Part shown: piece by piece, positions 1 through 24,091 of the stretch
Numbering within the stretch: position 1 is the stretch's first letter
How the letters are laid out: each line of letters begins with the position of its first letter
Assembly: GCA_016702305.1 (NCBI GenBank)
Contig: JADJEH010000001.1
Span: forward strand, 312,077-376,076
Length of the DNA: 64,000 nt
Direction of reading: 5' to 3'
DNA from: a bacterium
Lineage (GTDB): Bacteria; Electryoneota; RPQS01
Position numbers and translations under genes: made by a program
The notes under the pieces: model-generated
Databases searched by the model: none
Seen by the model: the letters and a program-made list of their open reading frames with translations, nothing else
Told to the model about the DNA's origin: nothing

Positions 1-280
1 CACCGCGTCCGTACTCGCGATTGTCAACGCCGTGGACTACGGTATGAACATTCAGGCCGCCATTGACTACCCGCGCTTGCACCAGCAATGGAAGCCCAAC
101 CGCGTGTTCATCGAACCTGATTTCCCCGTGGATGTCCGCATCGGCCTCGAACAGCGCGGCCACACTGTCGAAGTCGGCTCGCCGCGTTCGCGCGTGCAGG
201 CCTTACAAGCAGATACACTCCGCGGCGGCTGGTTCGGTGCCGCCGATAGCCGCGGCATTGGCGCCGCCATGGGACACTGA
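1..280 (+). CDS. ggt: gamma-glutamyltranspeptidase, C-terminal fragment (5' end lies outside the window)
   Basis: The frame continues from position 2. The translation ...AIVNAVDYGMNIQAAIDYPRLHQQW...GSPRSRVQAL...ADSRG matches the conserved C-terminus of the GGT small subunit (E. coli ...NVIDFGMNVAEATNAPRFHHQW...). Confidence 0.8.
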   Translation, partial: TASVLAIVNAVDYGMNIQAAIDYPRLHQQWKPNRVFIEPDFPVDVRIGLEQRGHTVEVGSPRSRVQALQADTLRGGWFGAADSRGIGAAMGH

Positions 281-320
281 ACGGTATACCCCACGGATGA
301 ACGGATTAATTTTGGACTTG

Positions 321-349
321 TTGACAATCTGGCAAGTCCTCCGTATCTT
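321..349 (+). promoter_or_regulatory. sigma70-like promoter: TTGACA, 17-nt spacer, TATCTT
   Basis: A -35 TTGACA at 321-326 and a -10 TATCTT at 344-349 are separated by exactly 17 nt. The predicted TSS lies at about 355-357, right at the ATG of the XRE gene, which suggests a leaderless transcript. Confidence 0.35.
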
Positions 350-354
350 GGGAC

Positions 355-786
355 ATGGTAACCAATAAGACCATTCCGCTCGACATCGGCCAGCGGCTGC
401 ATGAAGCGCGCCGAGCCGCCGATATGTCGCAGGACACCCTGTCCAAAGCCGTACGCGTGAATCGCTCGTACCTCTCGCTGGTGGAAAACGGCCGCTCGTC
501 GCCAACCATCGAATTCCTTGAAAAGGTCGCGTCCGGACTGAATTTGCGTGTCGAAGAGCTCATTCTGGGCCCTGAGGCCTTCCGCTACCTCAGCCTGTCA
601 CCGCGCCACGGCTATCTCTACAAGGGGTTGGTCGAACTGCTTGAAGATCAAGAACAGATGCTGCTGATGAACCCGTCCGCCGAAGAGGTCGAAATCCTCA
701 AGGCCATTCAACTGCATCCTGATCATAGTCCGACCAAACGCTTCTTCGTGGATGCCCTGCTCGACCTGCGCCGGACGCGCTCGTGA
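355..786 (+). CDS. XRE-family helix-turn-helix transcriptional regulator
   Basis: The N-terminus LHEARRAADMSQDTLSKAVRVNRSYLSLVENGRSSPTIEFLEKVASGLNLRVEEL is a canonical Cro/C1-type HTH. The C-terminal roughly 70 aa are of unknown function. Confidence 0.7.
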   Translation: MVTNKTIPLDIGQRLHEARRAADMSQDTLSKAVRVNRSYLSLVENGRSSPTIEFLEKVASGLNLRVEELILGPEAFRYLSLSPRHGYLYKGLVELLEDQEQMLLMNPSAEEVEILKAIQLHPDHSPTKRFFVDALLDLRRTRS

Positions 787-1166
787 GTACAAATCCGTTT
801 CCGGAATCTAATCCCATGCAGCAGCAAACCTTCTGGCAAGACGACATCTTTGTCGTCAAACTATCCGGCAAAATGATGGGTGGTATGGGCACCGCCGGCT
901 TTCATGACGACGTCAAACTTGCCGCCAGCGAAGGCTGCCGCCGCGTCGCGATTGACATGGAGGAAGTGGACTGGCTCAATAGCTGGGGCGTCGGTCTGCT
1001 CGTCTCGGCCTTCACGACGCTGCGCAACTGCGGCGGTCAGATGATCCTCGCCGGCTGCGGACCCAAGGTCATGGCCGTGCTGCGCATGACACATTTCGAT
1101 TCCGTCTTTGTTTTCGAAAACGACGTGAACGCGGCTTTGCAAACACTGGCCGCCCCGTCCGACTGA
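783..1166 (+). CDS. STAS-domain anti-sigma-factor antagonist (SpoIIAA/RsbV-like)
   Basis: The STAS signature ...VAIDMEEVDWLNSWGVGLLVSAFTTLRNCGGQMILAG... retains a conserved Ser in the phosphorylation loop. The gene overlaps the XRE gene by 4 nt. The true start may be the internal Met at about 816. Confidence 0.75.
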   Translation: MSTNPFPESNPMQQQTFWQDDIFVVKLSGKMMGGMGTAGFHDDVKLAASEGCRRVAIDMEEVDWLNSWGVGLLVSAFTTLRNCGGQMILAGCGPKVMAVLRMTHFDSVFVFENDVNAALQTLAAPSD

Positions 1167-1221
1167 TTCTTTCATCTATTTTCTCATATCACCTCGCGCA
1201 CCCCAAGGAGCAATCGTTTCC

Positions 1222-1560
1222 ATGAAGTTGAAGTCCTCAGAACTAAACGGCGTCTTTCTCGTCGAACTTTCCGGCAAGATCATGGGCGGCCCCGAGTCCG
1301 CACAGTTCCATGATGCCATCAAGCATGCCATCAGCTCAAGTCACAAGAAAGTCGTCATTGACCTCGGCGCCGTCGAATGGATGAACAGCTCGGGCATTGG
1401 CCTGCTGGTCTCCGCCTACACCACGTTGAAGAACGCCGGAACCGAAATGAAACTCGCACGCACGACCGAAAAAATTCAGTCGCTGCTCATCATCACCAAG
1501 CTCAACTCGGTGTTCGATAGTCACGATACCGTAGATGCGGCCGTCAAGAGCTTCAACTGA
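1222..1560 (+). CDS. STAS-domain anti-sigma-factor antagonist (second copy)
   Basis: An AAGGAG ribosome-binding site lies 8 nt upstream. The translation ...VVIDLGAVEWMNSSGIGLLVSAYTTLKNAGTEMKLA... carries the classic DxSG(I/L)G phosphorylation-loop motif of SpoIIAA/RsbV. Confidence 0.8.
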   Translation: MKLKSSELNGVFLVELSGKIMGGPESAQFHDAIKHAISSSHKKVVIDLGAVEWMNSSGIGLLVSAYTTLKNAGTEMKLARTTEKIQSLLIITKLNSVFDSHDTVDAAVKSFN

Positions 1561-1562
1561 TC

Positions 1563-3050
1563 TTGGCCGATCCACTTGCCACTGACTTCGCTCCCGCTCC
1601 CGTGAGTGACGGACCACGCCGCACGGTGCGCGCCCTGTCGCTCCTTGAGGAGTTGGAGCGGCAGGCGCAAGCGTATCTGCGGGATCTCGGCGGCGGTAAA
1701 CTGCAAGCCGAGCGGCAGCGTAAACTCGTCGAATTGCTGAATTCCATCGGCGCCGCGAAGGAAAACCTGCGCGTGCAGTCCGAGTTCGAACGCGAACGGC
1801 AGGAGAATGCCATTCTCCAGGAAGTCAGCCTCAGACTGTCCAGCGCCGCCGACATCCGCGAAGTCCTCCGCGCGATCCTTGAATCACTGCGGCAGGTCGT
1901 CGAGTTTGATGCGGCGGGCATCTTCGTTTACAATCGCGAACTGCAGCAGATTGAAGTGGACATGCTCGCCGGCTATGGCGGGGCCCAAAAACGCCGCGTC
2001 TATACCAAATTCCAGGAAGGCGTCAAACACGGCGAAGGCGTCGTGGCCACTGTTGTCTTCTCTGGAAAACCGATTTACGTCCCTGACGTGCTCAACGATT
2101 CGCGGTACGTCGAGGTCCGACCCACCACACGCTCCGAACTCGCCGTGCCCATCTTGGTGCGGGACGAGATCATCGGAGCCTTCAATCTCGAATCAGACCG
2201 GCTGGACGCCTTCAGCGACCGCGACCTGCGGCTCTTGATGGCCTTCGCCAGTCATGCCGGAGCCGCTCTCGAACGCGCACGCGCAGACCGCCAGCGACAG
2301 CACACCCAGCGGATCGGCGAGGAGCTCTCGCTGGCCCGTCGCATTCACGCTGGTTTCTTGCCCAAGACCTTTCCCGACTTCGCGCCCTTCGATCTCGGCG
2401 GCATGAACTTCCCCTCGAGCGAGGTCGGTGGTGATTACTACGACTTCGTGCCGATTACCCAAACGGATCTCGGCGTCATCATGAGTGATGTCGCCGGACA
2501 CGGCGTGGCCGCAGCGCTGCTGATGGCCAATTTCCGCGCCTGCATTCGCATCGAAGCACGCGCACACTACGCTATTCCCACGATACTTCAGCGCGTCAAC
2601 GAGTTTCTGGTGGAGACCATCCCGCCGGACAGTTTCGTGACCGCATTTTACGGTGTGTTAAACCGCGAACATCGCTTGCTCACCTACAGCAACGCCGGCC
2701 ACAACCCGCCGTTGCTCGTCCGCGAGGGCGCGCCCTTCGAGCTGCTGACCGAGGGGGGGCCCATCCTTGGCGTGCTGCCCGACGCACGCTACGAACAGGC
2801 GCGAATCGAACTTCGTCCGGGGGACATACTCGTTTTCTACACCGACGGCGTCACCGAAGCACGGACCAACGCCGGCGAAGAATTTGGAGTCGAACGACTG
2901 GCTGATCTGACGAATCGCTACCGGAATATTCCCGCGAATGAATTGGCCCGCCGCATCAGTCACGATGTTCTGTCGTATCATGCGTCGGATTTGACTATGG
3001 ATGATCTCACTATTTCCGTGGTGAAGTATGACGGCACCGAATCGCACTGA
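1563..3050 (+). CDS. GAF-domain PP2C-type serine phosphatase (RsbU/SpoIIE family)
   Basis: The N-terminus is a coiled-coil followed by a GAF domain. The C-terminus ...MNFPSSEVGGDYYDFVP...IMSDVAGHGVAAALLMANFRA...FYTDGVTEA is the PPM/SpoIIE phosphatase core. The ORF apparently starts with TTG at 1563, directly after the STAS stop codon. Confidence 0.8.
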   Translation: MADPLATDFAPAPVSDGPRRTVRALSLLEELERQAQAYLRDLGGGKLQAERQRKLVELLNSIGAAKENLRVQSEFERERQENAILQEVSLRLSSAADIREVLRAILESLRQVVEFDAAGIFVYNRELQQIEVDMLAGYGGAQKRRVYTKFQEGVKHGEGVVATVVFSGKPIYVPDVLNDSRYVEVRPTTRSELAVPILVRDEIIGAFNLESDRLDAFSDRDLRLLMAFASHAGAALERARADRQRQHTQRIGEELSLARRIHAGFLPKTFPDFAPFDLGGMNFPSSEVGGDYYDFVPITQTDLGVIMSDVAGHGVAAALLMANFRACIRIEARAHYAIPTILQRVNEFLVETIPPDSFVTAFYGVLNREHRLLTYSNAGHNPPLLVREGAPFELLTEGGPILGVLPDARYEQARIELRPGDILVFYTDGVTEARTNAGEEFGVERLADLTNRYRNIPANELARRISHDVLSYHASDLTMDDLTISVVKYDGTESH

Positions 3051-3456
3051 AATCCTGAATATCCCCTCTTCGGTGGATCAAATTGAAAAGGTGGACGAGT
3101 TCGTCGAGTCCATCGCCACCGGCATGGGCTTCACGCAAGACGCGCTCGCCGATATTGGAATCTGCGTCACGGAACTGGTCATGAATGCCATCGTTCATGC
3201 TCATAAAGAGCAGGCTGACATACCGGTCGAAATCGTTGTCGAACAACGCGGCGACGGCCTTGCGGTGCGCGTCCGCGACTACGGCCCCGGTTTCGATACC
3301 GCCAAAGTCCCCGATCCCACTTCCCCCGAACATATCTTTGAAGACCACGGACGGGGCATTCTCATCGTCCGCGCCATGATGGACGATGTGACCTGTACCC
3401 GGCTCGCGGACGGCATGGCCATTGAGGTCTTCAAACGTCTCAATCACTCGGCATGA
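3028..3456 (+). CDS. anti-sigma regulatory factor, Ser/Thr protein kinase (RsbW/SpoIIAB-like, HATPase_c)
   Basis: The translation ...ICVTELVMNAIVHAH...VRVRDYGPGFD... matches the GHKL ATPase fold of RsbW-type switch kinases. The gene overlaps the phosphatase gene by 23 nt. Confidence 0.75.
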   Translation: MTAPNRTEILNIPSSVDQIEKVDEFVESIATGMGFTQDALADIGICVTELVMNAIVHAHKEQADIPVEIVVEQRGDGLAVRVRDYGPGFDTAKVPDPTSPEHIFEDHGRGILIVRAMMDDVTCTRLADGMAIEVFKRLNHSA

Positions 3457-3941
3457 GAATCGCGATCTATCCCGGCACGTTCGATCCCATTACCTATGGG
3501 CATCTCGATGTTATTGATCGCGCCGCCGCGCTGTTTGATCAGGTCATTGTCACATTGGCTGTGCATTCGCAGAAAACACCGCTTTTCACTACCGATGAGC
3601 GCAAGGCCCTGATCGAGGAAGCCACCGCGAAATTCCCCGGAGTCTCCGTGGATACGTGCGAAGGCCTAATTGTCGAATTCGCCGAAAAACGCGGCGCGAT
3701 TGCCATCATCCGCGGCCTCCGCGCCGTCTCCGATTTCGACTACGAGTTTCAAATCGCCTTGGCTAACCGCGTGCTCGCCCCCAACGTCGCCACCGTTTTC
3801 CTGCTGCCCGGCGAGCAGTACACGTACTTGAACAGCTCGATCGTGCGCGAAGTCTCGCGCTTAGGCGGCTCCGTGGATAGCTTTGTTCCGCCCCATGTCG
3901 CGCGAGCATTGTTGGCAAAACACTCCTCGCGTAAAACATGA
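3453..3941 (+). CDS. coaD: phosphopantetheine adenylyltransferase
   Basis: MRIAIYPGTFDPITYGHLDVIDRA... is the canonical CoaD N-terminus with the (T/H)xGH motif. The product is about 160 aa. Confidence 0.9.
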   Translation: MRIAIYPGTFDPITYGHLDVIDRAAALFDQVIVTLAVHSQKTPLFTTDERKALIEEATAKFPGVSVDTCEGLIVEFAEKRGAIAIIRGLRAVSDFDYEFQIALANRVLAPNVATVFLLPGEQYTYLNSSIVREVSRLGGSVDSFVPPHVARALLAKHSSRKT

Positions 3942-4002
3942 ACCCCGCGTCGCGTCATTCGGCGACAAACCAGCGCGGCCTCTGACTACCGTGGATTCTC
4001 TG

Positions 4003-5517
4003 ATGCGCCCGCACGGGCGCTTTGTGTTTTGGTACCCGTTTCTCGCCGCCGTCGTTGGTTTTATTGTGTGCCGTGCAGCGTTGCTCGAACCGATCTTTTT
4101 CAACATTGACGAGGCCGAATACGCCGTTGCTGCGCAAGCGTTGCCGCACGGCTTATGGCCTGGAGCGGAGCTGGTCGGTTCCACCAAACCTCCGGCCATC
4201 GTCTATCTCTATGCGGCCATCTTCGCCGTCTTCGGCGAGAGCCTGTTGGCCGTGCAGTGCATCGGCCTCGCGCTGTGGATCGCCATGCTCTACCTGACCA
4301 TGCGAATCGGCGCTGGACTGTTGCCGGATCTGCCCGCGTGGCTGGTGGCCGTCGCCTTCTTTCTCTTTGCCAATTCTTTCGGCCATCCGCGCGACATGCA
4401 GGCGCTCAATGTCGAGTTGCCCGGTACTGTGTGCGTCGCGTTAGGCTTCTGGCTCTTGATCCGCGGCGAGAACAAAGCCCGCTTCTGTTATGCCGGAGTG
4501 CTGCTTGGTCTGGCCAGCATGTTCCGCCAGAGTTTCGCACTCTATCTCTTTGCCTTCCTCGTATTCGTGCCGCAACCGCGGCGCAGCGGCGCCCTGCAAA
4601 TTGTCATCGGCGTCGCAGTGCCATGGATTCTCCTGTTCACGGCTTATGCCGGAACGGGACGACTCACAGCCGCGCTCGATTCTTGGTTTCGCTATCCGTT
4701 TGTATATGCCGGAGACACCGGTCTCGCGGGCTTCGTCGAGGCCGCGTGGTACAACACGCTCGACCTTGTGAAACAGGGCTTCGTCATCTGGCTGCTGTTG
4801 CCCGTCGGACTGCTTGTCTTGTGGAAACGCCGCGCCTGGACGATCTTGCTCCTGTTGCTGTGCGCCGCTGCGACCATCGCCGTTGGTTCGCGTTTCTCAC
4901 CGCATTACTACATTCAGGCATTGCCGTTCTTGGCGCTGGCATCGGCCCTGGCCGCGGGCGTCCTGTTCGTTCTAGGTCCGCGTTGGAGTCTGTTCATGCG
5001 CACGGCCCTGACAATCGGCTGTGCGCTGGCGCTCTTGCATTTTCCGTTCTGGCGCTTCTGGGATGACCTTGCGCCGCCGAACGGACTGTCGCCGGAAACC
5101 CTCGACGGCAACGCACTCGAACAGGAATTGGCAGGCTTCGCCGCCGGGCAAACTTCATCCGCCGATCGTATCTTCGTATGGGGGTACTGTCCGCAAATCT
5201 ACTTCCACGCGCAGCGCCTGCCCGCCGTGCGCGATTATCTCTGTCACTATGTCACCGGCTACTCGGCCGCGACTTCCAACCCTCGTCCTTACGCGCGGGC
5301 CGATGCCGAGGCGATGCTCATCGCTGATCTCGCGCAGCACAAACCCGCGCTCATATTCGATATTTCCGCCGTCGAATTCTATCCGTATTCCTTCCACAGT
5401 TATCCTATCACTCGCTACGCCGATCTGACCGCGTTCATCCGGGCCAACTACCAGCCCGTAGCGCAAGTCGGCTCCACCGCGATCTATGCGGCGCAGCATT
5501 CATCGTCTTCTAACTGA
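4003..5517 (+). CDS. polytopic membrane glycosyltransferase, GT39/ArnT/PMT-like (dolichyl-phosphate-mannose-type transferase family)
   Basis: The protein has 10 or more predicted transmembrane segments. An N-terminal loop ...FFNIDEAEYAVAAQALPHGLWPG... resembles the DE-containing first periplasmic loop of the PMT_2/ArnT family. The ORF track begins at 3883, inside coaD. The internal ATG at 4003 is the more plausible start. Confidence 0.55.
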   Translation: MRPHGRFVFWYPFLAAVVGFIVCRAALLEPIFFNIDEAEYAVAAQALPHGLWPGAELVGSTKPPAIVYLYAAIFAVFGESLLAVQCIGLALWIAMLYLTMRIGAGLLPDLPAWLVAVAFFLFANSFGHPRDMQALNVELPGTVCVALGFWLLIRGENKARFCYAGVLLGLASMFRQSFALYLFAFLVFVPQPRRSGALQIVIGVAVPWILLFTAYAGTGRLTAALDSWFRYPFVYAGDTGLAGFVEAAWYNTLDLVKQGFVIWLLLPVGLLVLWKRRAWTILLLLLCAAATIAVGSRFSPHYYIQALPFLALASALAAGVLFVLGPRWSLFMRTALTIGCALALLHFPFWRFWDDLAPPNGLSPETLDGNALEQELAGFAAGQTSSADRIFVWGYCPQIYFHAQRLPAVRDYLCHYVTGYSAATSNPRPYARADAEAMLIADLAQHKPALIFDISAVEFYPYSFHSYPITRYADLTAFIRANYQPVAQVGSTAIYAAQHSSSSN

Positions 5518-5528
5518 TCCGAACTCTC

Positions 5529-6902
5529 ATGCGATTTCCAGCCGAACCCTTCCGGATTAAAGTTGTCGAAAAAATCCGCCGCACTACCCGTGACGAACGC
5601 GTCGAACTACTCCAGCGCGCCGGGCTGAACGTCTTCCTTCTGCCCGCCGATTCAATTTACGTTGACCTGCTTACCGACAGCGGTACCGGTGCCATGAGCG
5701 ATCAGCAGTGGGCCGGGCTTATGATCGGCGACGAGAGCTATGCGGGCTCCAAGAGCTTCTTCAAGTTCGAAGCCGCCGTCCGCGATATCACGGGCTTCCC
5801 GTTCGTCATTCCCACACATCAAGGCCGCGTTGCCGAAAACCTGCTGTTCTCCACAATCTGCGAGACCGGCAAGACCGTCATCTCCAACACGCACTTCGAC
5901 ACGACCCGCGCCAACGTCGAGATGAACCGCGCCGTCGCGCTCGACTTGCCTGTCAAGGAGGCGCTTGATCCGCAGCTTGGTGTGCTGTGGAAAGGCAACA
6001 TGGACGTCGCCAAGCTTGAAGCGAAATTGAAGGCCGACCGCGATCACATCCCAATGGTCGTGATGACCGTCACCAACAACTCCACCGGTGGTCAACCAGT
6101 CTCGATGGAAAATGTTCGCGCTGCCTCACGCCTCTGCAAACAATACGGCGTGCCGTTCTTCATTGACTGCGCGCGCTTCGCTGAAAACTGCTGGTTCATC
6201 CACGAATTCGAACCCGGCTACAAAGGCAAGAGCATAATCGAAATTGCGCGCGAATTGTTCAGCCATGCCGACGGCTGCTGGATGTCCGCCAAAAAGGACG
6301 CGCTTGTCAATATCGGCGGTTTCATCGCTATGAACGATGTCGAACTTTCGCGCAAATTGCAGCAAAAACTCATTTTGATCGAAGGCTTCCCGACGTATGG
6401 TGGCCTGGCGGGCCGCGACCTCGAAGCCGTCGCCATCGGACTCTACGAGGGCATGGAACTCGATTACCTGCACTATCGAACGGCGCAAGTGCGCTATCTC
6501 GGCGACATGCTCTGGGATGCCGGTGTGGCCATCGTTCGACCAGTCGGCGGTCACGCCGTTTTTATTGACGCGAAAGCCTTCTGCGATCATATTCCACCTG
6601 AGCATTTCCCCGGCGTCGCCTTGACATGCTCGCTCTATCGCGAAGCCGGTATTCGCGGCGTGGAAATCGGTTCGTTGATGTTTGGTCACGCCGATCCTAA
6701 GACCGGCAAACACGTCGCTCCGTCGCTTGAACTCGTGCGACTCGCCATTCCACGCCGCGTCTATACCACCGCGCACATGACCTACGTCGCCGAGTCCATC
6801 ACTGAACTCTTCAAGAATCGTCACAGTATCAAGCCCATGCGCCTGACCTACGAAGCGCCCGTGCTTCGACACTTCACAGCGCACTTGGAAGAGATTGAAT
6901 AA
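5529..6902 (+). CDS. tnaA: tryptophanase / tyrosine phenol-lyase family beta-eliminating lyase (PLP-dependent)
   Basis: The protein aligns end-to-end with E. coli TnaA: PEPFRI(K/R)V(V/I)E...TTRDERV..., DLLTDSGTGAM, TIPTHQGR(V/G)AE, SNSTGGQPVS, DCARFAENC(W/Y)FI, MSAKKDALVNIGG with the PLP lysine. TnaA and TPL cannot be separated by eye. Confidence 0.85.
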   Translation: MRFPAEPFRIKVVEKIRRTTRDERVELLQRAGLNVFLLPADSIYVDLLTDSGTGAMSDQQWAGLMIGDESYAGSKSFFKFEAAVRDITGFPFVIPTHQGRVAENLLFSTICETGKTVISNTHFDTTRANVEMNRAVALDLPVKEALDPQLGVLWKGNMDVAKLEAKLKADRDHIPMVVMTVTNNSTGGQPVSMENVRAASRLCKQYGVPFFIDCARFAENCWFIHEFEPGYKGKSIIEIARELFSHADGCWMSAKKDALVNIGGFIAMNDVELSRKLQQKLILIEGFPTYGGLAGRDLEAVAIGLYEGMELDYLHYRTAQVRYLGDMLWDAGVAIVRPVGGHAVFIDAKAFCDHIPPEHFPGVALTCSLYREAGIRGVEIGSLMFGHADPKTGKHVAPSLELVRLAIPRRVYTTAHMTYVAESITELFKNRHSIKPMRLTYEAPVLRHFTAHLEEIE

Positions 6903-7764
6903 GTTCACCCGCGTTGTCGTCATCACCGGCTGCTCGAGCGGCATCGGCCGCGCCGCCGCCTTTCATTTTGCTCGTCACGGCTGGGCCGTCGTCGGCACTG
7001 TGCGCGAACAGTTTCAGCTCTATTCACTTTCCGCCGAATTGCATCAAGCTTCGCTGCACACATCGCTGGTCCTGTGCGACGTTACGCGCGAGGACGACGT
7101 CGTGCAGTTGGTCAGTCACGCAATCGAGCGCTTCGGCAGGGTGGACGTCTTGATCAACAACGCCGGATTCGCGCGCAGCGGCTGCCTTGAACTTGTGACG
7201 ATGGACGAAGCGCGTGCGCAGGTTGAAGTGAACACGCTCGCGCCAATTCGCCTGACGCAATTGCTGTTGCCGCACTGGCGCAAACAGGGCGGAGGCCGCA
7301 TCATCAATATCTCGTCGGTCGCCGGGCGCGTCACGCTGCCGTGGAACGGCTGGTACTCCGCGTCGAAATTCGCGCTGGAAGCGCTCACCGATGCGCTGCG
7401 TCTTGAACTGCGTCCATTCAAAATTGACGTCGTCTCCGTGCTCGCCGGACCCGTGTTGACAAAATTCGTGTCTAACGTCAAATTGACCGAGCCGCCCACC
7501 GACGCGCCAGAAATCTATCGGCGCATTCACGACTTCGCACAGATTCGCCGGGCCGCCCCCCGACCCGGTGCGTGGACCGCCGAGCGTTGCGCCGCACTTC
7601 TGTATGAAATCGCAACTGTCACCCGTCCGCGTACGCGCTACGTTACGGGGGCCAAGGCACAAATGGCCATCCTGCTGCGCAAACTGTTACCCGACAGGCT
7701 CTGGGATCGTCTGCTCCTGCGCGCCTACGGCGTGTCTTCATTGCTCACTAAACGCACTGCATGA
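6895..7764 (+). CDS. short-chain dehydrogenase/reductase (classical SDR)
   Basis: The Rossmann motif is TGCSSGIGRAAA. NNAG is present, and the catalytic YxxxK lies in ...YSASKFALEAL. Confidence 0.8.
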   Translation: MNKFTRVVVITGCSSGIGRAAAFHFARHGWAVVGTVREQFQLYSLSAELHQASLHTSLVLCDVTREDDVVQLVSHAIERFGRVDVLINNAGFARSGCLELVTMDEARAQVEVNTLAPIRLTQLLLPHWRKQGGGRIINISSVAGRVTLPWNGWYSASKFALEALTDALRLELRPFKIDVVSVLAGPVLTKFVSNVKLTEPPTDAPEIYRRIHDFAQIRRAAPRPGAWTAERCAALLYEIATVTRPRTRYVTGAKAQMAILLRKLLPDRLWDRLLLRAYGVSSLLTKRTA

Positions 7765-8399
7765 TTAAAGCTGTCTTTTTCGACTTCGACGGTACACTGA
7801 TTGACTCGATGCCCGCGCACGTTATCGCGTGGGAGCAAATCCTCGGCGAGGTCGGGATTCGTCTCGACGATCTCTATTTCCAATTGCACGAGGGCGAAAA
7901 GGCCGAGGACACTGTCGCCCGCTTGCTCGCCGAGCATAACGTTCACTACTCGCACGCGCAGCAGGCCGAGCTGATCGAGCGCAAACGAGCGCTCTACCGC
8001 TCCAACGCGTCCGCTGGACTAATCCCTGAGGCAGCTGAACTGGTTCGTGAACTGAATCATCGCGGTATCGCCTGCGACATCGTCACCGGCTCGATCCGCA
8101 GTAACATGGACGCCGTGCTGTCGGCCGAAGAGTTCGCGCTCTTTCGTTCAATCTTTACGCCCGCGGAATATGGTCGCGGCAAGCCCGCGCCGGATCCCTA
8201 CTTGAAGGCGCTCGAACAGAGCGGCCTGGCGGCCCACGAGTGCCTCGCGCTTGAAAATGCGCCGCTTGGCGTACAATCGGCGAAAGCCGCAGGCCTGCGC
8301 ACCGTCGCCGTTACGACAACGTTGCCCCCCAGCTATCTGAGCGAAGCGGATCATGTGATTCATCGCTTCGCCGATTTTCTTCATCTATTGGAACCTTGA
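7761..8399 (+). CDS. HAD-superfamily hydrolase (subfamily IA, beta-phosphoglucomutase/phosphatase-like)
   Basis: Motif I is the N-terminal FFDFDGTLIDS. The conserved ...DIVTGS... and ...GKPAPDPY... motifs follow. Confidence 0.75.
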   Translation: MIKAVFFDFDGTLIDSMPAHVIAWEQILGEVGIRLDDLYFQLHEGEKAEDTVARLLAEHNVHYSHAQQAELIERKRALYRSNASAGLIPEAAELVRELNHRGIACDIVTGSIRSNMDAVLSAEEFALFRSIFTPAEYGRGKPAPDPYLKALEQSGLAAHECLALENAPLGVQSAKAAGLRTVAVTTTLPPSYLSEADHVIHRFADFLHLLEP

Positions 8400-9430
8400 G
8401 GTATCCGATGAGCCCCCTCCGTACCTGTAGCATTGAACGCCACTTCATCGAGCAACAGCAGCTTCATCCTGAAGCCACCGGCGAACTGACGCGCCTAATG
8501 CATCAGTTGGCCTTCGCCGCCAAGCAGATCACAAAGGAAGTGCGCAGCGCCGGATTGTCTGACATTCTTGGCGTGGCCGGGCACACCAACGTGCAAGGCG
8601 AAGTCGTTCAAAAACTCGACGAAATCACCAACGATGTCATCTATCGCGCCATGGATCACGCCGGCGTGCTCTGCTGCATGGCCTCCGAGGAACGCGCCGA
8701 TATGATCCCGATTCCAGCCGAATTTGAGTACGGGAAATACACGCTGGCCTTCGACCCGCTCGACGGCAGCTCGAATATTGACGCCAACATCAATGTCGGC
8801 ACTATTTTCGCTATTCACCGGCGCTCGTCTCCCGACGGCACTCCCGGCACGGTTGAAGATCTTCTGCAGCCCGGCCGCGAACTCGTCGTGGCGGGCTATA
8901 TCGTCTACGGCAGCTCCACCATGATGGTCTACACCACCGGCCACGGCGTGAATGGCTTCACACTGGAACCATCCATCGGCGAATTCCTGCTGTCACATCC
9001 GGATATGCGCATTCCGCAGCACGGGAAGTACTTCAGCATCAACATGGGCAACTATCATTACTGGAGCGAGGGAGTCCGCAAATACATAGACCATATCATC
9101 GCGCCGAACAACCAGCATGGCACGCCCTATTCGTCGCGTTACATCGGTTCCATGATCGCTGACGTCCACCGCACGCTGCTCTATGGCGGCCTGTTCATGT
9201 ATCCGCTCGACTACAAAGACCCGCAAAAACCCAAGTCAAAGCTGCGCCTGCTTTATGAAGCCTCGCCCATGTCTATGGTCATTGAACAGGCCGGCGGTGC
9301 GTCGTCCGACGGAAGCCAGTCCATTCTTGACGTAATCCCCAGAGGATTGCATGACCGCGTGCAACTCTTCGTCGGTTCGCGTGACAATCTTGCGGAGCTC
9401 TTGTCCTTCCTCGAGAAATACGACGGTTGA
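8396..9430 (+). CDS. fbp: fructose-1,6-bisphosphatase class 1
   Basis: The protein matches E. coli Fbp strongly: ATGELT.L, DILG..G..NVQGEV.QKLD, FDPLDGSSNID.N..VGTIF.I.RR, and the C-terminal GG.FMYP.D. Confidence 0.9.
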   Translation: MRYPMSPLRTCSIERHFIEQQQLHPEATGELTRLMHQLAFAAKQITKEVRSAGLSDILGVAGHTNVQGEVVQKLDEITNDVIYRAMDHAGVLCCMASEERADMIPIPAEFEYGKYTLAFDPLDGSSNIDANINVGTIFAIHRRSSPDGTPGTVEDLLQPGRELVVAGYIVYGSSTMMVYTTGHGVNGFTLEPSIGEFLLSHPDMRIPQHGKYFSINMGNYHYWSEGVRKYIDHIIAPNNQHGTPYSSRYIGSMIADVHRTLLYGGLFMYPLDYKDPQKPKSKLRLLYEASPMSMVIEQAGGASSDGSQSILDVIPRGLHDRVQLFVGSRDNLAELLSFLEKYDG

Positions 9431-9455
9431 TCGCACGCATCACTCGCACAAAATA

Positions 9456-9484
9456 AACGAGGCCCGGGTAATCCGGGCCTCGTT
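9456..9484. terminator. bidirectional rho-independent terminator between convergent fbp and MFS genes
   Basis: A perfect 12-bp inverted repeat AACGAGGCCCGG/CCGGGCCTCGTT has a 5-nt loop. An A-tract (AAAATAAA) on the 5' side supplies a U-tract for the minus-strand gene. Confidence 0.5.
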
Positions 9485-9509
9485 CGATTGTCAGCACAGG
9501 GCCTGACCT

Positions 9510-10718
9510 TTAATCTTTGCTAATGTCGCCAACCGCGTCCGGTTTGGTCCCGATCTTCAATAACGAAATCGCACCGATCAACAGACCGCCGCACCAGTAG
9601 GGTGCCGACAGACCGACAAACTGAAACAGTGCCGTACCGCTGGGCGGACCGAACACTCGTCCCAGCGCGCCAATGGACTGCGCCGTGCCCATCGTCAAAC
9701 CTTGCTTGTCCGGCGGCGCGGTCTTGGAGATGAGCGAGTTGATTGTCGGATTCATCACCGCGGAGCCCATCGCCAGAAGCGGGGTGACCAAAACCAATTG
9801 CAGCACCGTTCGTACCTGACCCGTCGCAATCAAACCGATTGCCATTAGTACCAATCCCGTGCGCGCCAGCGTGACCTCGCCGAAGCGTCGCACAAGTTTG
9901 CCCATCAGTGCGCCCTGAATAATCGCCGAGATCACTCCAACCTCGGCCAAAATCCAGCCGACATGCACCGCGTCAAGCCCCAAACGATGCTCGCCGAACA
10001 ACGCGAAGGTGCCCTCCATTTGCGAGAAGGCGAATACCTGCATGAAAAAGATGAAGATCAGCACGGCCATGTAGGGTATCGAAAGAACTTCGCGCAAAGC
10101 GCCGGTCGAGAGCAGGCCGCGATGCGATGTTCCGCCGCGATCAGAGTGCGTTTCAGGCAGCTTCCAAAACGCCCATACGAAATTGATGGTGGACAATCCT
10201 GCTGCGACCAGCGCCGGAAACCCATAACCGAATTGCGTGAGCACACCGCCTACGGCCGGACCGAAAATGAAACCCATCCCGAACGCCGCGCCAATCAACC
10301 CCATCCCTTTAGCGCGATCCTCCGGTGAGGTCGTATCGGCAATATACGCCTGCGCCGTCGGCAGCGTCGCACTGGAAAGAATCCCGGCGAGAATCCGCGC
10401 CGCAAACAGCATCGGGAGCGTAGTCGCCAAACCAAACATCAGAAATGCCGCCGCCGATCCCGCTAACCCGGTCAGCATAACGGGCCGCCGCCCGACCCGG
10501 TCCGATAGCCTTCCCCACAGCGGTGCAAAAAGAAAATGCATCGCTGAATACGTTGCCGAGAAAATGCCTATCGTTACGAAACTCGCACCAAAACTCTCCG
10601 CGTAAAACGGCAACGCCGGTATGATCAGCCCGAAACCGAGCAGATCAATAAATATCGTCAGGAACAGAATGGCGAGTTTCGAGTTCATAGTCGTATCGGC
10701 GAGAAGAGAATCTGTCAA
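9510..10718 (-). CDS. MFS transporter (DHA1/TetA-like drug:H+ antiporter family)
   Basis: The protein has twelve transmembrane segments. The MFS motif A GRLSDRVGRRPVML lies between TM2 and TM3. The alternative start at Met11 (MNSKLAIL...) gives 9510..10688. Confidence 0.8.
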   Translation of the reverse strand: MTDSLLADTTMNSKLAILFLTIFIDLLGFGLIIPALPFYAESFGASFVTIGIFSATYSAMHFLFAPLWGRLSDRVGRRPVMLTGLAGSAAAFLMFGLATTLPMLFAARILAGILSSATLPTAQAYIADTTSPEDRAKGMGLIGAAFGMGFIFGPAVGGVLTQFGYGFPALVAAGLSTINFVWAFWKLPETHSDRGGTSHRGLLSTGALREVLSIPYMAVLIFIFFMQVFAFSQMEGTFALFGEHRLGLDAVHVGWILAEVGVISAIIQGALMGKLVRRFGEVTLARTGLVLMAIGLIATGQVRTVLQLVLVTPLLAMGSAVMNPTINSLISKTAPPDKQGLTMGTAQSIGALGRVFGPPSGTALFQFVGLSAPYWCGGLLIGAISLLKIGTKPDAVGDISKD

Positions 10719-10822
10719 TATACGGAAGTCTCACCCCATAGTAAACGTGCGACTCTCCGCATTCCCCCGCCACATGCAGTTTGTACACGCCGTCGGCCCG
10801 TAACGGCCGATTTGTACGACGC

Positions 10823-10851
10823 TTGACAACCTCTTTATAGTTTTGTATTTT
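10823..10851 (+). promoter_or_regulatory. sigma70-like promoter for tRNA-Leu: TTGACA, 17 nt, TATTTT
   Basis: A -35 TTGACA at 10823-10828 and a -10 TATTTT at 10846-10851 are separated by 17 nt. The predicted TSS lies about 6 nt before the tRNA 5' end. Confidence 0.4.
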
Positions 10852-10863
10852 GGCTGTTTAGCC

Positions 10864-10947
10864 GCGAGAGTGGCGGAATTGGCAGACGCGCCAGATTTAG
10901 GTTCTGGTATCCGAGAGGGTGTGGGGGTTCGAGTCCCCCCTTTCGCA
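10864..10947 (+). tRNA. tRNA-Leu (anticodon UAG), class II with long variable arm
   Basis: GCGAGAGTGGCGGAATTGGCAGACGCGCCAGATTTAGGTTCTGG...GGGGGTTCGAGTCCCCCCTTTCGCA is near-identical in architecture to E. coli tRNA-Leu. The acceptor stem is GCGAGAG/CTTTCGC. The anticodon loop TTTAGGT gives anticodon TAG. Confidence 0.85.
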
Positions 10948-10970
10948 CAAGCTATCGGTCGGAGGAAATT

Positions 10971-12275
10971 TTGGAATTAATTGTTGAAAATAAGCGACTT
11001 AGCGAGGTCCAAGCCGAGCTAATCGTGGCCGTCCCGGCCGAGTATATGACCGCCGAAGTCGAGCGCAAGCTGGCCAGCGTGGCAGCCCATGCGGACGTCC
11101 CCGGTTTCCGACGCGGCAAAATACCGCGAAATATCCTGCTCCAAAAGTACGGCCCGGCCATCACAGAGGACACTGTTCAGACCGTCTTACAAGAGGCCTA
11201 CCGCACCGCTTTGGAGCAAGAAAAGCTCTTCCCGGTCACCCCGGGCGAAATGAGCGAAATCAACTTCGAGCCCGGCCAGCCCTTGACCTTCAAGGTCATC
11301 GTCGAGCTTCTACCGGACATCACGGTACCTGAATTGTCCGAAATTTCCGTCGAGTTGAAGGACCCGCAGGCGGATGACGAGGACATTAACACGGCGCTCG
11401 ACTCGCTCCGCGAAGGCCAGGCCGTGCTGGTTCCGTCTGACGACCCCGTGGACCAGCACTCCGTCGTGACCTTCGATCTGCAGGAGCTCGATGACTCCGG
11501 CGTGCCCATGATTGGCCGCTCCCAGAAGGGCGTGACCGTGGACATGAGCCGCCAGTCGCTTGGCGAGGAGTTTGCATCAAAAATGACCGGACTGACCAAC
11601 GATCAGACGACCACCGTCACGTTCCACCGTGGTGAGGGCCAGTCCTTGCGCACCCAAATTACCATTCGCAATGTCCAGCGCAAGGAGCTGCCCGAAGTGG
11701 ACGACCAATTCGTCCAGTCGGTCAACCCGAATCTTACATCCCTTGATGATTTGCGCTCCGACCTGCGCCGCTACATCGAGTCGCGCGCCGGACACGCCGC
11801 GCGCCAGCAGATGTTCCGGACACTGGCCGATGAGCTCCTGCGGCGCTCTGAGTTCCAAGTGCCGCCGCGTATGCTGGACAACTACCTTGACCGGATGGCC
11901 GATGAAGCCGTGCACAACAGCAAGGGCCATCACGACGATCATGCCATGGCGGAGTTCCGTGAAAAGTACCGCGCGTCCGCGATCTGGACGTTGCGCTGGT
12001 ACCTTATGCGCAACCGCCTGATTCAACTGTTTGATCTGCGCGCCACCGAAGACGACGTCAACGAAGAACTCGCGCGCTTGGCGACGCTCGAAGATGAAAT
12101 GCTCGATGACTTCCGCAAACGGTTGACGCCTGATCAGATCCAACAGGTGCACGACGATATTCAGGAACGCAAAGTCTTCGACTATCTTGAAGCACAGGTG
12201 CAGCTCCAGAAGACTCCGATCTCGCTCGCCGAGTTTGAAGGCCGTACGGAGCCGTCCAAAATCATCACCGTCTAA
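10971..12275 (+). CDS. tig: trigger factor (ribosome-associated chaperone / PPIase)
   Basis: The N-terminal ribosome-binding signature is [17 protein letters not shown]. The length is 434 aa. The gene lies in the conserved tig-clpP-clpX order. It has a TTG start preceded by GGAGG. Confidence 0.9.
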
Positions 12276-12280
12276 TCATC

Positions 12281-12904
12281 ATGTTCGAAATAGGAGACCA
12301 TACGTCCATGGCATTAGTCCCCATGGTTGTCGAGCAGACGGGTCGCGGCGAACGCGCCTTCGACATCTATTCCCGCCTGCTCAAGGAACGCATCATCATC
12401 GTCAGTACTCCCATTGACGATCATATCGCCAGTCTCGTGGTGGCGCAGTTGATCTTCCTCGCGGCGGAAGACCCCGAAAAGGACATTAGCCTGTATATCA
12501 ACAGCCCCGGCGGCGTCGTCACCGCGGGCCTTGCGATTTATGATACGATGCAGCATGTGAAGCCCGATGTCGCCACGATCTGCATCGGCCAGGCCGCTTC
12601 GATGGGCGCCTTCCTGCTGGCCGCCGGCGCCAAAGGCAAACGCAGCATTCTCCCCAACGCACGTGTTATGATCCATCAACCTATGGGCGGCGCGCAAGGG
12701 CAGGCATCCGATATTGACATCATGGCCAAGGAAATCCTGAAGTTGCGCTCCCGGCTGAATGAGATGCTCGCCAATCATACGGGCCGGCCGCTCGACAAGA
12801 TTGAACTGGACACCGACCGTAACTACTTCATGTCCGCCGAAGAAGCCAAGGAATACGGCATCGTGGACGAGATTATCTATCCGCGCGGCCACGGCAATAA
12901 GTAA
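12281..12904 (+). CDS. clpP: ATP-dependent Clp protease proteolytic subunit
   Basis: [30 protein letters not shown] and the catalytic Ser context [11 protein letters not shown] are essentially the E. coli ClpP consensus. Confidence 0.95.
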
Positions 12905-12916
12905 AGGAGCTGCGCT

Positions 12917-14155
12917 GTGACGGATCCCCGTCTGGAGCAAGTCTGTTCGTTCTGCGGCCGCTCGGAAAATCAGGTCGCCACGCTGATCAAGCATCAGGAC
13001 GGTATCGCCATTTGTGACGTGTGTGTCGAACACGCCCATCAGATTGTTGCGATGTCGCGCGCCGGACGCAAGTCCATCAACCTCTCCGAGTTTCCCACGC
13101 CGCGCGAAATGAAGCGCAAGCTCGACGAGTACATCATCGGCCAGGACGATGCCAAACGGAAAATCTCGGTCGCCGTCTACAATCACTATAAGCGGATCGC
13201 CGGTGCCGAACAGACGTCCGACGTCGAAATCGAAAAGTCCAATATTCTGCTGATTGGACCGACCGGAACGGGCAAGACTTTGCTCGCGCAGACCATGGCG
13301 CGTTTCCTGCACGTCCCGTTCGCCATTGCTGATGCCACCACGCTGACGGAAGCGGGCTATGTCGGTGAAGACGTCGAGAATGTCTTGGTGCGCCTGCTGC
13401 AAAATTCCGACTATGATGTCGCCCGCGCTGAGATGGGCATCATCTATATTGACGAAATTGACAAGATCGCCCGCAAAGATCCGAACATGTCCATTACCCG
13501 CGATGTGTCCGGCGAAGGCGTCCAGCAGGCGTTGCTGAAAATTCTCGAAGGCACGGTCGCAAATCTGCCTCCGCAGGGCGGCCGGAAACATCCCGAGCAG
13601 AAGTTCATTCAAATGAACACCAAGAACATTATGTTCATCTGCGGCGGCGCCTTCGAAGGTCTCGAAAAGATCGTCAAGAGCCGCGTTGCCAAATACCCGA
13701 TCGGCTTCGGAGCGCGCAATATTCCTGATGCCGCTGAAGACGGCGAATACGTCCTCAAGCGCGTCAGCTTCGAAGATCTGAATTCCTACGGATTGATCCC
13801 TGAACTCATCGGACGCCTCCCCGTGGTGTCGGTGCTCGAACCGCTCTCCGATGAAGCCATGATGAGGATCATGGTCGAGCCGCGCAATGCGCTCGTCAAG
13901 CAATATTCACGTCTGTTCGAAATGGAAGGCGTCAAGCTCACCTTTGAACAGGATGCACTGCTGGCGATCATCCGCGAAGCCCGGCGCCGCAAGACTGGCG
14001 CGCGTGCCCTCCGTGCCATTGCCGAAGAAGCGCTCATGGAGGCCTTCTTCGAAGTACCCAGCCGCAAAGACGTTGGTGAAGTTATCATCGGAGCCGATAC
14101 CGTGCTCGAAAAGAAACCCGCGCGTTTCGTCGAGTTGAAAAAGAAGAGCGCTTAG
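12917..14155 (+). CDS. clpX: ATP-dependent Clp protease ATP-binding subunit ClpX
   Basis: The N-terminal C4 zinc finger is CSFCG...CDVC. Walker A is [17 protein letters not shown], the GYVG pore loop and sensor motifs are all present. Confidence 0.95.
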
Positions 14156-17045: not shown

Positions 17046-18113
17046 TCATCTGCTGTGGCGCGGACCCAGCACGCGAATTAATTGCTTCAGCAGACCCGTG
17101 TCAATCTCTTCATACATCTTGTCGCGCATGAGAGTTAACGCTTCGATCCCGCGCAGCGCCGGCTTGTACACTCGGTGCGAAGTCAGCGCATCGTAGATGT
17201 CCACAAGCGTGCAGATGCGGGTCTCCAGAGATATTCTCTCAGGAGGAAGCCTCCGCGGATAGCCGCGGCCGTTGAGCTTCTCGTGATGCGAGTGGATGAT
17301 GTCCATGGCCATATCCGTGACTTCCGGGTGCGGCCGCATCAGCGACACGCCATGTTCAGGATGCATCTCCACTTCACGCATCTCCGACGTGGACAGAACC
17401 CCCGCCTTGCGCAAAATCTGCGATGGCACTCGACACTTGCCCACGTCGTGAAGCAGATAGCCCATCGCAGCATCCTTCACGTGCGTCTCCGGCCCGTGGA
17501 TCTCTAACAAAAGCGCCGTGCCCAGTGTTGCAACATGCACGGCGTGCGAATACAGCGAATAGTCGAGCGCAAACGTCCCGGCCATCGCGCGCAGCAGATC
17601 ACGATCCGCCGCTAACGCCTCGACCGTGTGCTCAACCATCGTGCGATTCGTCTTGATCAGAACCGGAGACTCCGGCCGCGAGAATGTCGCCTGAACCAGC
17701 GCCGTCGTCGTCTGATACAAGACCTGCGACTTCTGCTCCGGCGTCGCGTCGTCGGCCCGCAGCACGTCGCCCACGGTGCGGTCCACGAATGTGAAGTACT
17801 GCCCGGCGTCGTCGTCCGCAACGTACAGGAACTTGACGCCGCGATCAATCAGCTCCTTACGCTTCTGCTCGCTCAGGTCAAGATCAGCCGACTTGTAAAG
17901 CACATAGCGCTGACCCGTCCGCGTCGGCACGCCGAGGTAAAGGTCAAAATGCGCGCCCTTGCCCGCGTGCAGAGTGGCCAGCGGAGCAGGGTGGTAGATC
18001 CGGTGGTCTACCTGCGGTTCAATGATGCTGTTACTTGACGACACGTTTGCTCGTAGAGATGACCCTTGTTCCAGCGCAAAGCCCGTGCCCTCAGAAAAAA
18101 CACCCGAAGCCAT
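17046..18113 (-). CDS. HD-GYP domain cyclic-di-GMP phosphodiesterase
   Basis: The HD motif lies in LLHDVGK. HHE(K/R).NG(R/S)GYP is present as HHEKLNGRGYP. The D in DIYDAL coordinates metal. An N-terminal domain of about 170 aa is of unknown function. Confidence 0.85.
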   Translation of the reverse strand: MASGVFSEGTGFALEQGSSLRANVSSSNSIIEPQVDHRIYHPAPLATLHAGKGAHFDLYLGVPTRTGQRYVLYKSADLDLSEQKRKELIDRGVKFLYVADDDAGQYFTFVDRTVGDVLRADDATPEQKSQVLYQTTTALVQATFSRPESPVLIKTNRTMVEHTVEALAADRDLLRAMAGTFALDYSLYSHAVHVATLGTALLLEIHGPETHVKDAAMGYLLHDVGKCRVPSQILRKAGVLSTSEMREVEMHPEHGVSLMRPHPEVTDMAMDIIHSHHEKLNGRGYPRRLPPERISLETRICTLVDIYDALTSHRVYKPALRGIEALTLMRDKMYEEIDTGLLKQLIRVLGPRHSR

Positions 18114-18135: not shown

Positions 18136-18208
18136 TGAGAGCGCCGGGATTCGAACCCGGGACCATCGCCTTAAAAGGGCGGTGCTCTACCTGCTGAGCT
18201 ACGCTCTC
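18136..18208 (-). tRNA. tRNA-Lys (anticodon UUU)
   Basis: The reverse complement reads GAGAGCGTAGCTCAGCAGGTAGAGCACCGCCCTTTTAAGGCGATGGTCCCGGGTTCGAATCCCGGCGCTCTCA. Acceptor, D, anticodon (loop CTTTTAA) and T arms fold canonically and are close to E. coli tRNA-Lys. Confidence 0.85.
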
Positions 18209-23580: not shown

Positions 23581-24091
23581 CTGAAGTGGTAGAGAGAGGG
23601 GCGTGCTGCTTCATGAACAATGTCTGCCATAACAACAGCACGATGCCGACCGTCACGCACGAGTCCGCGATATTGAACACGGGCCAGCGCTGCATGATGA
23701 AATCGGGAAAATCCGCGTCGAAAAAATCCGTCACCGACCGGAACAACACCCGGTCAATAGAATTGCCCACCGCGCCGCACCAGAATAGAAAGACCGGCCA
23801 CATGAGCCGATCGCGGTCGCGAACCAATTTGTATAAGTAGATTGCCAACCCAACCGCCGCGGTTGCGCCAAATAGCATCAACACCAACGGCGGAAACGGC
23901 TCCAGTCCGAAGGCCACACCGGGATTCTGCACATACGTTAACCGTAGCAGCTCGCCGAGTACAGGAATAGATTCCCCCAGCACAAAACTCGCGCGCACCC
24001 AGGCCTTGGTCCACTGATCCAGCCCGACCAACATCGCAAAACCCAGCATCCACGGCCAATACGCCGGCCGCATGGCACCGCTCATCGTCAT
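23471..24091 (-). CDS. lspA: lipoprotein signal peptidase II
   Basis: Conserved LspA blocks are present: ...LDQWTK..., NPGVAFG, ...FNIADSCVTVG.... There is an unusual Ser/Thr/Pro-rich C-terminal extension of about 45 aa. Confidence 0.85.
   Translation of the reverse strand: MTMSGAMRPAYWPWMLGFAMLVGLDQWTKAWVRASFVLGESIPVLGELLRLTYVQNPGVAFGLEPFPPLVLMLFGATAAVGLAIYLYKLVRDRDRLMWPVFLFWCGAVGNSIDRVLFRSVTDFFDADFPDFIMQRWPVFNIADSCVTVGIVLLLWQTLFMKQHAPLSTTSGERLDSSSLSTSSSSGTETAAAGPLSHPSPSSDLPQ

Follow-up and report, generated by a model that had tools for sequence, protein, structure and literature searches.

The partner switches of Bacillus subtilis, RsbU-RsbV-RsbW-sigma-B and SpoIIE-SpoIIAA-SpoIIAB-sigma-F, are built from three types of protein, a PP2C phosphatase, a STAS-domain protein, and a kinase, and their operon also includes the gene for the target sigma factor or directly adjoins it. 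Partner-switching modules without a sigma factor are well documented too (PMC8256260). Sigma is not the direct output of SypE/SypA in Vibrio, HsbR/HsbA and SiaABCD in Pseudomonas, RbaVWY in Rhodobacter, or BtrUVW in Bordetella, and in the characterized noncanonical systems the STAS protein serves as the output effector (PMC8256260). Here we describe a locus whose behavior we provisionally liken to theirs. It consists of six same-strand genes in a row, at positions 355 to 3941 of a 64-kb stretch of bacterial DNA (contig JADJEH010000001.1; "the window"), on which the analysis was centered: a gene for an XRE-family repressor, two STAS genes, genes for a GAF-PP2C phosphatase and an RsbW-like kinase, and coaD. 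No sigma factor gene accompanies them. With the locus a known class of switch gains a real and intact member, found in little-studied uncultured lineages (labeled Calditrichaeota, KSB1, or LCP-89). Sigma-less modules, paired STAS proteins, GAF-PPM phosphatases, and XRE-M78 pairs have all been published already; the unusual points are the conserved coupling to coaD and the stress-type repressor in front.

With the B. subtilis systems the locus shares the same three protein types and their intact motifs. It differs from them in the lack of a sigma gene in the operon or nearby, in the gene order (STAS-PP2C-kinase), in a kinase that scores well under the equivalog cutoffs, and in the input to the phosphatase, which is a GAF domain rather than an RsbT-binding N-domain or the membrane region of SpoIIE. 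The STAS-output systems have other domain fusions and inputs (SypE and HsbR, for example, are multidomain proteins), and they show no linkage to coaD or to a DdrO-like repressor. The Rsb system of Chlamydia trachomatis (RsbU, RsbV1, RsbV2, and RsbW) resembles the locus in having two STAS proteins, one kinase, one PP2C phosphatase, and no dedicated sigma alongside. In Chlamydia, RsbU sits in the membrane and senses through a periplasmic domain, and the Rsb genes are dispersed; here, in contrast, the GAF sensor is cytoplasmic, a single operon includes coaD, and the second STAS protein is a very recent duplicate. The chlamydial paralogues are unequal, RsbV1 being the preferred substrate (PMC8256260), and the unequal pair described below is reminiscent of them. 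The features of the locus are as follows.

321 to 349, plus strand: sigma-70-type promoter-like site from a consensus scan (TTGACA at 321-326, 17-nt spacer, TATCTT at 344-349)
355 to 786, plus strand: XRE-family repressor, 143 amino acids (aa) (HTH_3, E 3e-12; DdrO-like C-terminal domain)
816 to 1166, plus strand: STAS1, 116 aa (Pfam STAS, E 3e-13; NSWG loop)
1222 to 1560, plus strand: STAS2, 112 aa (Pfam STAS, E 2e-14; NSSG loop)
1563 to 3050, plus strand: GAF-PP2C sensor phosphatase, 495 aa, TTG start (GAF_2, 1.6e-20; SpoIIE, 2.8e-50)
3028 to 3456, plus strand: RsbW/SpoIIAB-like GHKL serine kinase, 142 aa (HATPase_c_2, 1.9e-25)
3453 to 3941, plus strand: coaD, phosphopantetheine adenylyltransferase (PPAT), 162 aa (TIGR01510 equivalog, 193 bits; cutoff, 103)

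A first-pass annotation, made from the sequence alone, had proposed five co-directional genes at 355 to 3456 that form an RsbV/RsbW/RsbU-type partner-switching set and are followed by coaD. Each of these open reading frames (ORFs) was confirmed, and profile searches matched STAS, SpoIIE, HATPase_c_2, GAF_2, and HTH_3 domains in the five products and TIGR01510 (193 bits) in the sixth. STAS1 and STAS2 each consist of a STAS domain alone (116 and 112 aa). STAS1 matches SpoIIAA (1th8_B; E 4.8e-8); STAS2 matches TM1442 and SpoIIAA, and scores 63.6 bits against TIGR00377, the anti-sigma-antagonist superfamily, above its cutoff of 53.45. The two loops, NSWG and NSSG, had been read correctly as belonging to non-identical proteins. 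Their serine aligns with the first serine of the SpoIIAA DSSG loop, which we take to be the phosphorylated Ser58 and which is alanine in the 1tid chains; this residue, Ser56 (codons 981-983 in STAS1 and 1387-1389 in STAS2), is invariant in 15 STAS orthologues.

The nearest NCBIfam families to the kinase are RsbW (NF003144; 3.5e-16, 59 bits against a cutoff of 145) and SpoIIAB (TIGR01925; 51.8 bits against 135), and its score thus stays below the curated equivalog level of either. It matches the RsbW structure 6m36 (E 2.2e-10). The N-box (E49, N53, and H57), the G1 box (D84-x-G86-x-G88-F), and the G2 box (G108-R-G110) are invariant in 13 orthologues. The PP2C domain of the phosphatase matches those of Rv1364c and RssB, and D291/D294 (GGDYYD), D309/G312/G314 (DVAGHG), D428 (TDG), and D480/D481 are invariant in 36 homologues. 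The kinase therefore has its GHKL boxes, both STAS proteins keep the acceptor serine, and the phosphatase keeps the metal-binding aspartates. By these sequence features, the locus very probably encodes an RsbV/RsbW/RsbU-type serine phospho-switch. The combination that defines a stressosome, an RsbR-type sensor fused to STAS plus a single-domain RsbS, was not found.

The genes are packed less tightly than first described. Overlaps of 4 to 23 nt had been claimed for them, and two such overlaps are real, at PP2C/kinase (23 nt) and at kinase/coaD (4 nt, ATGA); the other junctions are gaps of 2 to 55 nt. Between XRE and STAS1 the gap is 29 nt, with the STAS1 ATG at 816. A GTG start at 783, which would give a 4-nt overlap with XRE, was rejected because all four orthologues, and the gene calls in relatives, use an ATG equivalent to 816. 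The STAS1/STAS2 gap of 55 nt holds an AAGGAG ribosome-binding site at 1205-1210, and the STAS2/PP2C gap is 2 nt. Homologues of the phosphatase open at the position of its TTG start with ATG. An Rfam scan gave no match in the region, and two tRNAs lie elsewhere in the window. A PDB match for the locus, "SenB" (9qih), was set aside after a literature search gave nothing relevant.

That the genes have no joint function, and form a decaying remnant or a mobile or defense island, is hardly credible and is effectively refuted by conservation. Besides the invariance of the catalytic and acceptor residues, the ratio of nonsynonymous to synonymous substitution rates (dN/dS) against three relatives is well below 1 for all six genes; dS is saturated (0.9-4.4), and what the comparison yields is a ranking by dN and a dN/dS well below 1, nothing finer. 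The G+C content of the region (0.58-0.59) is the same as that of the rest of the window, and the gene context is a housekeeping one. Nothing specific favors such an island. In PADLOC the XRE helix-turn-helix (HTH) domain matches generic regulator models, with a weak capH match (E 5e-6), and the other five proteins match no defense-system model.

Related loci were retrieved by homology to the phosphatase or the kinase, 172 in all (about 1.6 Mb), and fall into lineages that differ in what surrounds the switch. In lineage A, the close relatives (phosphatase 69-81% identical; some labeled Calditrichaeota) have the order gamma-glutamyltranspeptidase-XRE-STAS1-STAS2-PP2C-kinase-coaD, and three more distant loci (L021, L087, and L088; phosphatase 52-62% identical; one labeled KSB1) have a single STAS gene, orthologous to STAS2. 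In every lineage-A locus XRE immediately precedes the STAS genes. Lineage B (L089, from candidate division LCP-89, and L090-L092; phosphatase 42-45% identical) keeps STAS-PP2C-kinase-coaD between different flanks: a divergent amine oxidase gene and a methyltransferase gene lie upstream and ftsE-ftsX downstream, where lineage A has the transpeptidase/XRE and pdxJ/PMT genes. Lineage C (L097, L098, L100, and L112) has the STAS-PP2C-kinase order without coaD. XRE is absent from lineages B and C. A metagenome scan, the source of lineage C, gave further kinase-coaD loci as well (L093-L096, L103, and L106), again with the unit between different flanks. The PP2C/kinase overlap is kept in 8/8 loci measured, lineage B included, and the kinase/coaD junction is -11 to +8 nt in the same number (-11 to +4 nt in lineage B). 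In all loci of lineages A and B these two genes overlap or are at most 11 nt apart.

Because the block recurs in lineages A and B between different flanks, and in lineage C without coaD, the conserved core is STAS2-PP2C-kinase, usually with coaD, and STAS1 and XRE are later additions. The five-gene cassette proposed at first is thus not the unit. When its co-occurrence was followed across relatives, the conserved block proved to be STAS2-PP2C-kinase-coaD, the only one common to lineages A and B; XRE belongs to a separate module, and STAS1 is restricted to the closest subclade.

Two lineage-C loci have acyl-CoA-related neighbors without coaD. In L097 (4126-10754) and L098 (3445-4398) the switch set lies near a 3-hydroxyacyl-CoA dehydrogenase gene; in L097, moreover, a gene for a BMC-domain (microcompartment shell) protein precedes the set and one for acetate kinase follows it.

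The two STAS proteins are 43% identical and have evolved unequally. STAS2, the ancestral anti-anti-sigma-type STAS protein, occurs in all related loci and is better conserved than any other gene of the operon. Its identity between lineages A and B is 55-58%, against 32-35% for the kinase. STAS1 was found only in the closest subclade, in loci whose PP2C protein is at least 69% identical. Between relatives STAS1 is 55-68% identical, against 85-93% for STAS2, and its dN is 3 to 6 times higher. Ser56 is retained in STAS1, the NSWG loop is invariant, and dN/dS is well below 1. From its sequence, STAS1 looks like a recent, faster-evolving duplicate that is functional as a second substrate. The relatives with one and with two STAS proteins offer a natural comparison.

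We looked for a sigma factor in the window and in its relatives. No Sigma70 domain was detected in the 51 further window ORFs scanned with Pfam. A six-frame search of window ORFs 60 aa or longer, for which the queries were E. coli RpoD, RpoS, FliA, RpoE, and FecI and a profile built from these and from hits in related loci, found none either; it also covered ileS, dnaE, valS, the 5' end of recG, and a few ORFs of up to 160 aa, which lay outside the Pfam scan, and its E. coli-seeded profile could miss very divergent extracytoplasmic function (ECF) sigmas. The region upstream of the window was read from contig CAWKXM010000006.1 of the metagenome-assembled genome (MAG) GCA_963853605.1. This is a closely related strain or assembly, which has 64 mismatches in 13,050 nt (99.5% identity) and, over window positions 1-13050, one Lys/Gln difference in the phosphatase. 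No sigma factor is among the genes called there from -8.4 kb to +10 kb. The first reading, that no sigma factor is encoded in or next to the module, is thereby upheld across the 64-kb window and 8.4 kb upstream, and the operon arrangement of sigma-B and sigma-F is not present. The same search of the 172 related loci gave 10 sigma ORFs (9 genes), none of them adjacent to a kinase gene, and the three lineages with the STAS-PP2C-kinase order all lack an adjacent sigma gene. The lack of a neighboring sigma is therefore the rule for this kinase/phosphatase family and not a peculiarity of one locus.

On these data we propose the following scheme. XRE, STAS1, STAS2, the GAF-PP2C phosphatase, the kinase, and coaD would be read as one operon from the promoter at 321-349. 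The RsbW-like kinase would phosphorylate Ser56 of STAS2, and probably STAS1 also. A small ligand bound by the cytoplasmic GAF domain would lead the PP2C domain to remove the STAS phosphate, the signal passing along a long helix as proposed for other dimeric PPM phosphatases, and unphosphorylated STAS would bind the kinase, which is the partner switch proper. The output target would be encoded outside the operon, and unphosphorylated STAS2 would engage it there, as SypA, HsbA, RbaV, and SiaC do. STAS1 may be a recent second substrate, a competitor, or a branch. XRE would be a DdrO-type repressor layer added upstream, which probably autoregulates the promoter, and coaD, an essential gene of the coenzyme A (CoA) pathway, would be coexpressed with the switch because it overlaps the kinase gene.

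Taken whole, as a six-gene operon with a phospho-switch and a STAS-centered output, this scheme is our best explanation and a tentative one. Its least certain part is the output. A STAS-centered, non-sigma output is suggested, with reserve, because no sigma gene is adjacent in any lineage, because the STAS protein is the most conserved component and the duplicated one (the kinase is not duplicated), and because there are sigma-less precedents.

The principal alternative is a canonical anti-sigma switch that acts at a distance: the kinase would sequester a sigma encoded elsewhere, either an alternative one or, as has been proposed for Chlamydia, the primary one, and dephosphorylated STAS2 or STAS1 would free it. 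We regard it as a real contender and lean only slightly to the STAS-centered output over it. Several observations count against our preference. The kinase's closest named relatives, in family and in structure, are the true anti-sigma factors RsbW and SpoIIAB, and STAS2 lies above the anti-sigma-antagonist superfamily cutoff. Sigma targets can be encoded far from the switch, as is sigma-66 in Chlamydia, which has two RsbV paralogues (PMC8256260), and RpoS in Pseudomonas (PMC6482189). In most other partner-switching families sampled the kinase is likewise less conserved than the STAS protein, and in 5/7 the difference is clear, so that this conservation is not specific evidence for a STAS output and is a weak lead. 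In the regulatory part of the scheme, no clear operator palindrome is conserved at the XRE promoter, and the promoter, the leaderless start discussed below, and autoregulation by XRE are read from sequence. Against the remote sigma stand the absence of an adjacent sigma in three lineages and next to the kinase in all 172 loci, the equivalog scores of the kinase, far under the cutoffs for both RsbW (59 against 145 bits) and SpoIIAB, and the faster evolution of the kinase compared with STAS2. With its small four-gene core and soluble GAF sensor, the locus offers a clean case for asking what sigma-less switches control.

A different output, control of CoA biosynthesis, is suggested by the coupling to coaD; it is speculative, and we consider it improbable. 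CoaD (PPAT) would be a direct partner of the kinase or of STAS2, bound by it or modified by it, for instance through phosphorylation; or else a metabolite of the CoA pathway would be the signal for the GAF domain. The sole block common to lineages A and B is STAS2-PP2C-kinase-coaD, the kinase/coaD junction is tight in all loci measured, and two of the four lineage-C loci (L097 and L098) lie near the 3-hydroxyacyl-CoA dehydrogenase and acetate kinase genes mentioned above. However, all four lineage-C loci have the same gene order without coaD, and CoaD has an ordinary length, scores high as an equivalog, and carries no additional domain. Since lineages A and B are related and both belong to the FCB group, an inherited operon structure suffices as explanation, and a literature search found no precedent, that is, no paper linking coaD, or Calditrichaeota, to partner switching. 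Were it true, unlikely as it is, it would mean posttranslational control of CoA synthesis by a partner switch, of which no report was found, and would explain why the kinase/coaD coupling is kept in two lineages with changed neighbors. Should the coupling rest on a direct interaction, partner switching would gain a new class of output; otherwise the locus is an ordinary one.

The phosphatase has the layout of a helically linked sensor enzyme. Dimeric phosphatases with GAF, PAS, or receiver domains joined to PPM domains are controlled via a helical linker (PMC12143880). In the AlphaFold model of the phosphatase (pLDDT 85) a helical hairpin (residues 17-41 and 46-94) precedes a GAF domain (about 95-237), a 47-residue helix (219-265), and the PP2C domain (about 276-489), and this GAF-helix-PP2C layout, as modeled, matches the published arrangement (PMC12143880). 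The first-pass annotation had given the protein a GAF sensor and an N-terminal coiled coil. The sensor is borne out (GAF_2, 1.6e-20); the N terminus is modeled instead as the hairpin ahead of the GAF domain. In Clostridioides difficile RsbZ and Streptomyces coelicolor OsaC a long helix likewise connects GAF and PPM domains (PMC12143880; for the locus, the model). RsbZ, with tandem GAF domains, and OsaC, with GAF and PAS domains, feed sigma-B-type factors, whereas the protein described here has one GAF domain after the hairpin.

Around the genes for long homologues of the phosphatase (about 590 aa), in MAGs labeled Zixibacteria or Ignavibacteria, there is within 8 kb neither a STAS or kinase gene nor coaD. 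Several of these double-GAF homologues have an ECF-type sigma gene about 380-750 nt downstream on the same strand, and a phosphatase-sigma association in this sister family is possible. The ECF-type sigma genes near the long PP2C genes are as follows.

L007, 9636 to 10217: ECF-type sigma gene
L013, 9637 to 10188: ECF-type sigma gene
L019, 9697 to 10254: ECF-type sigma gene
L071, 2376 to 2933: ECF-type sigma gene

The XRE protein resembles the repressors of the Deinococcus DdrO/IrrE, ImmR/ImmA, and CapH/CapP pairs, and DdrO most directly, in sequence and in predicted fold. Its HTH domain spans residues 11-72, and its C-terminal domain is conserved. A phmmer comparison with Deinococcus DdrO (6rmq) gave a near-full-length match (E 1.4e-7; residues 11-140 against 3-126), and in a Foldseek search with the AlphaFold model (pLDDT 86.6) the top five matches were DdrO structures (E 5.5e-7; 131-138 aligned columns). 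The family is narrow, with 76 matches, all 42-99% identical. By sequence and model, we assign XRE to the DdrO/IrrE (XRE-COG2856) class, whose repressors are inactivated by a protease. The residue of XRE aligned with what is presumably the arginine following the DdrO cleavage site is histidine.

Unlike in DdrO/IrrE pairs, no COG2856/Peptidase_M78 gene adjoins XRE in the window or in its relatives L082-L088. Such a gene is present in two other loci. In L001 the contig opens with the C terminus of an XRE orthologue, followed by an IrrE-like Peptidase_M78 gene (E 5.7e-10; the XRE/M78 part covers positions 1-707), a 145-aa ORF, and STAS-PP2C-kinase-coaD. In L178 (6001-7000) the XRE gene, whose product is 44% identical, and an M78 protease gene overlap, and the neighborhood lacks partner-switching genes. 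Because XRE orthologues pair with an M78 protease, once without the switch genes, XRE is an added regulator from a separate module and not a component of the switch; the neighboring IrrE-like protease was probably lost in the clade of the window.

The same distribution bears on the idea that XRE is itself the output of the switch, sequestered by the kinase in the manner of a sigma factor, so that the five genes would form a closed transcriptional circuit. XRE lies directly 5' of the STAS genes in all lineage-A loci, and its conserved C-terminal domain could bind a partner. Lineages B and C, however, keep the switch without XRE, and XRE is of the DdrO type, with orthologues beside an M78 protease in L001 and, in L178, away from any partner-switching gene. 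We consider this circuit very unlikely.

The predicted promoter, TTGACA-17-TATCTT, has 10/12 consensus matches and is one of two such matches in 6 kb. Across 7 related loci the GTTGA of the -35 element and T/GTA/TT at window positions 341, 344-346, and 349-350, within the -10 element and a little 5' of it, are invariant. The XRE ATG at 355 lies 5 nt past the -10 element, and the spacing is 5-6 nt in the window and its three closest relatives (L084, L082, and L086); in the more distant L087, L088, and L021 a leader of 25-45 nt separates promoter and XRE. The leaderless XRE transcript proposed in the first-pass annotation is plausible on this predicted start geometry, given a promoter conserved in 7 relatives and the close spacing in the four nearest loci. 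A 7-nt inverted repeat picked out by eye, GGACTTG-N12-CAAGTCC (314-339), was considered as the XRE operator and rejected; it is not conserved in relatives, and a repeat search found none.

Upstream of the locus, contig CAWKXM010000006.1 has genes for a peptidase S8, a peptidase M14, and the gamma-glutamyltranspeptidase, in that order, the 3' end of the last corresponding to window positions 2-280. Downstream, window positions 3941-9430 hold a co-directional, packed array of genes for a PMT_2-family glycosyltransferase, a beta-eliminating lyase, an SDR protein, a HAD hydrolase, and fructose-1,6-bisphosphatase. Several of its junctions overlap by 4-8 nt, and relatives carry pdxJ and an HD-domain gene right after coaD. 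The switch thus stands at the head of an array of housekeeping genes. A hairpin at 4005-4020 was rejected as a coaD terminator. The called start of the gene after coaD falls in it, shuffled sequence is expected to contain just as many terminator-like sites, and pdxJ overlaps coaD in relatives. Farther along, on the minus strand between rluD and ileS (23471-24558), lie lspA (Peptidase_A8, E 9e-35) and a gene for a DksA/TraR-type zinc-finger protein (E 2.9e-8), downstream of ileS, an ordinary arrangement. The only other signaling-type gene noticed among the ORFs scanned, at 17046-18113 on the minus strand beside a tRNA gene (18136-18208), encodes a 355-aa HD_5/HD-domain protein, possibly an HD-GYP-type phosphohydrolase.

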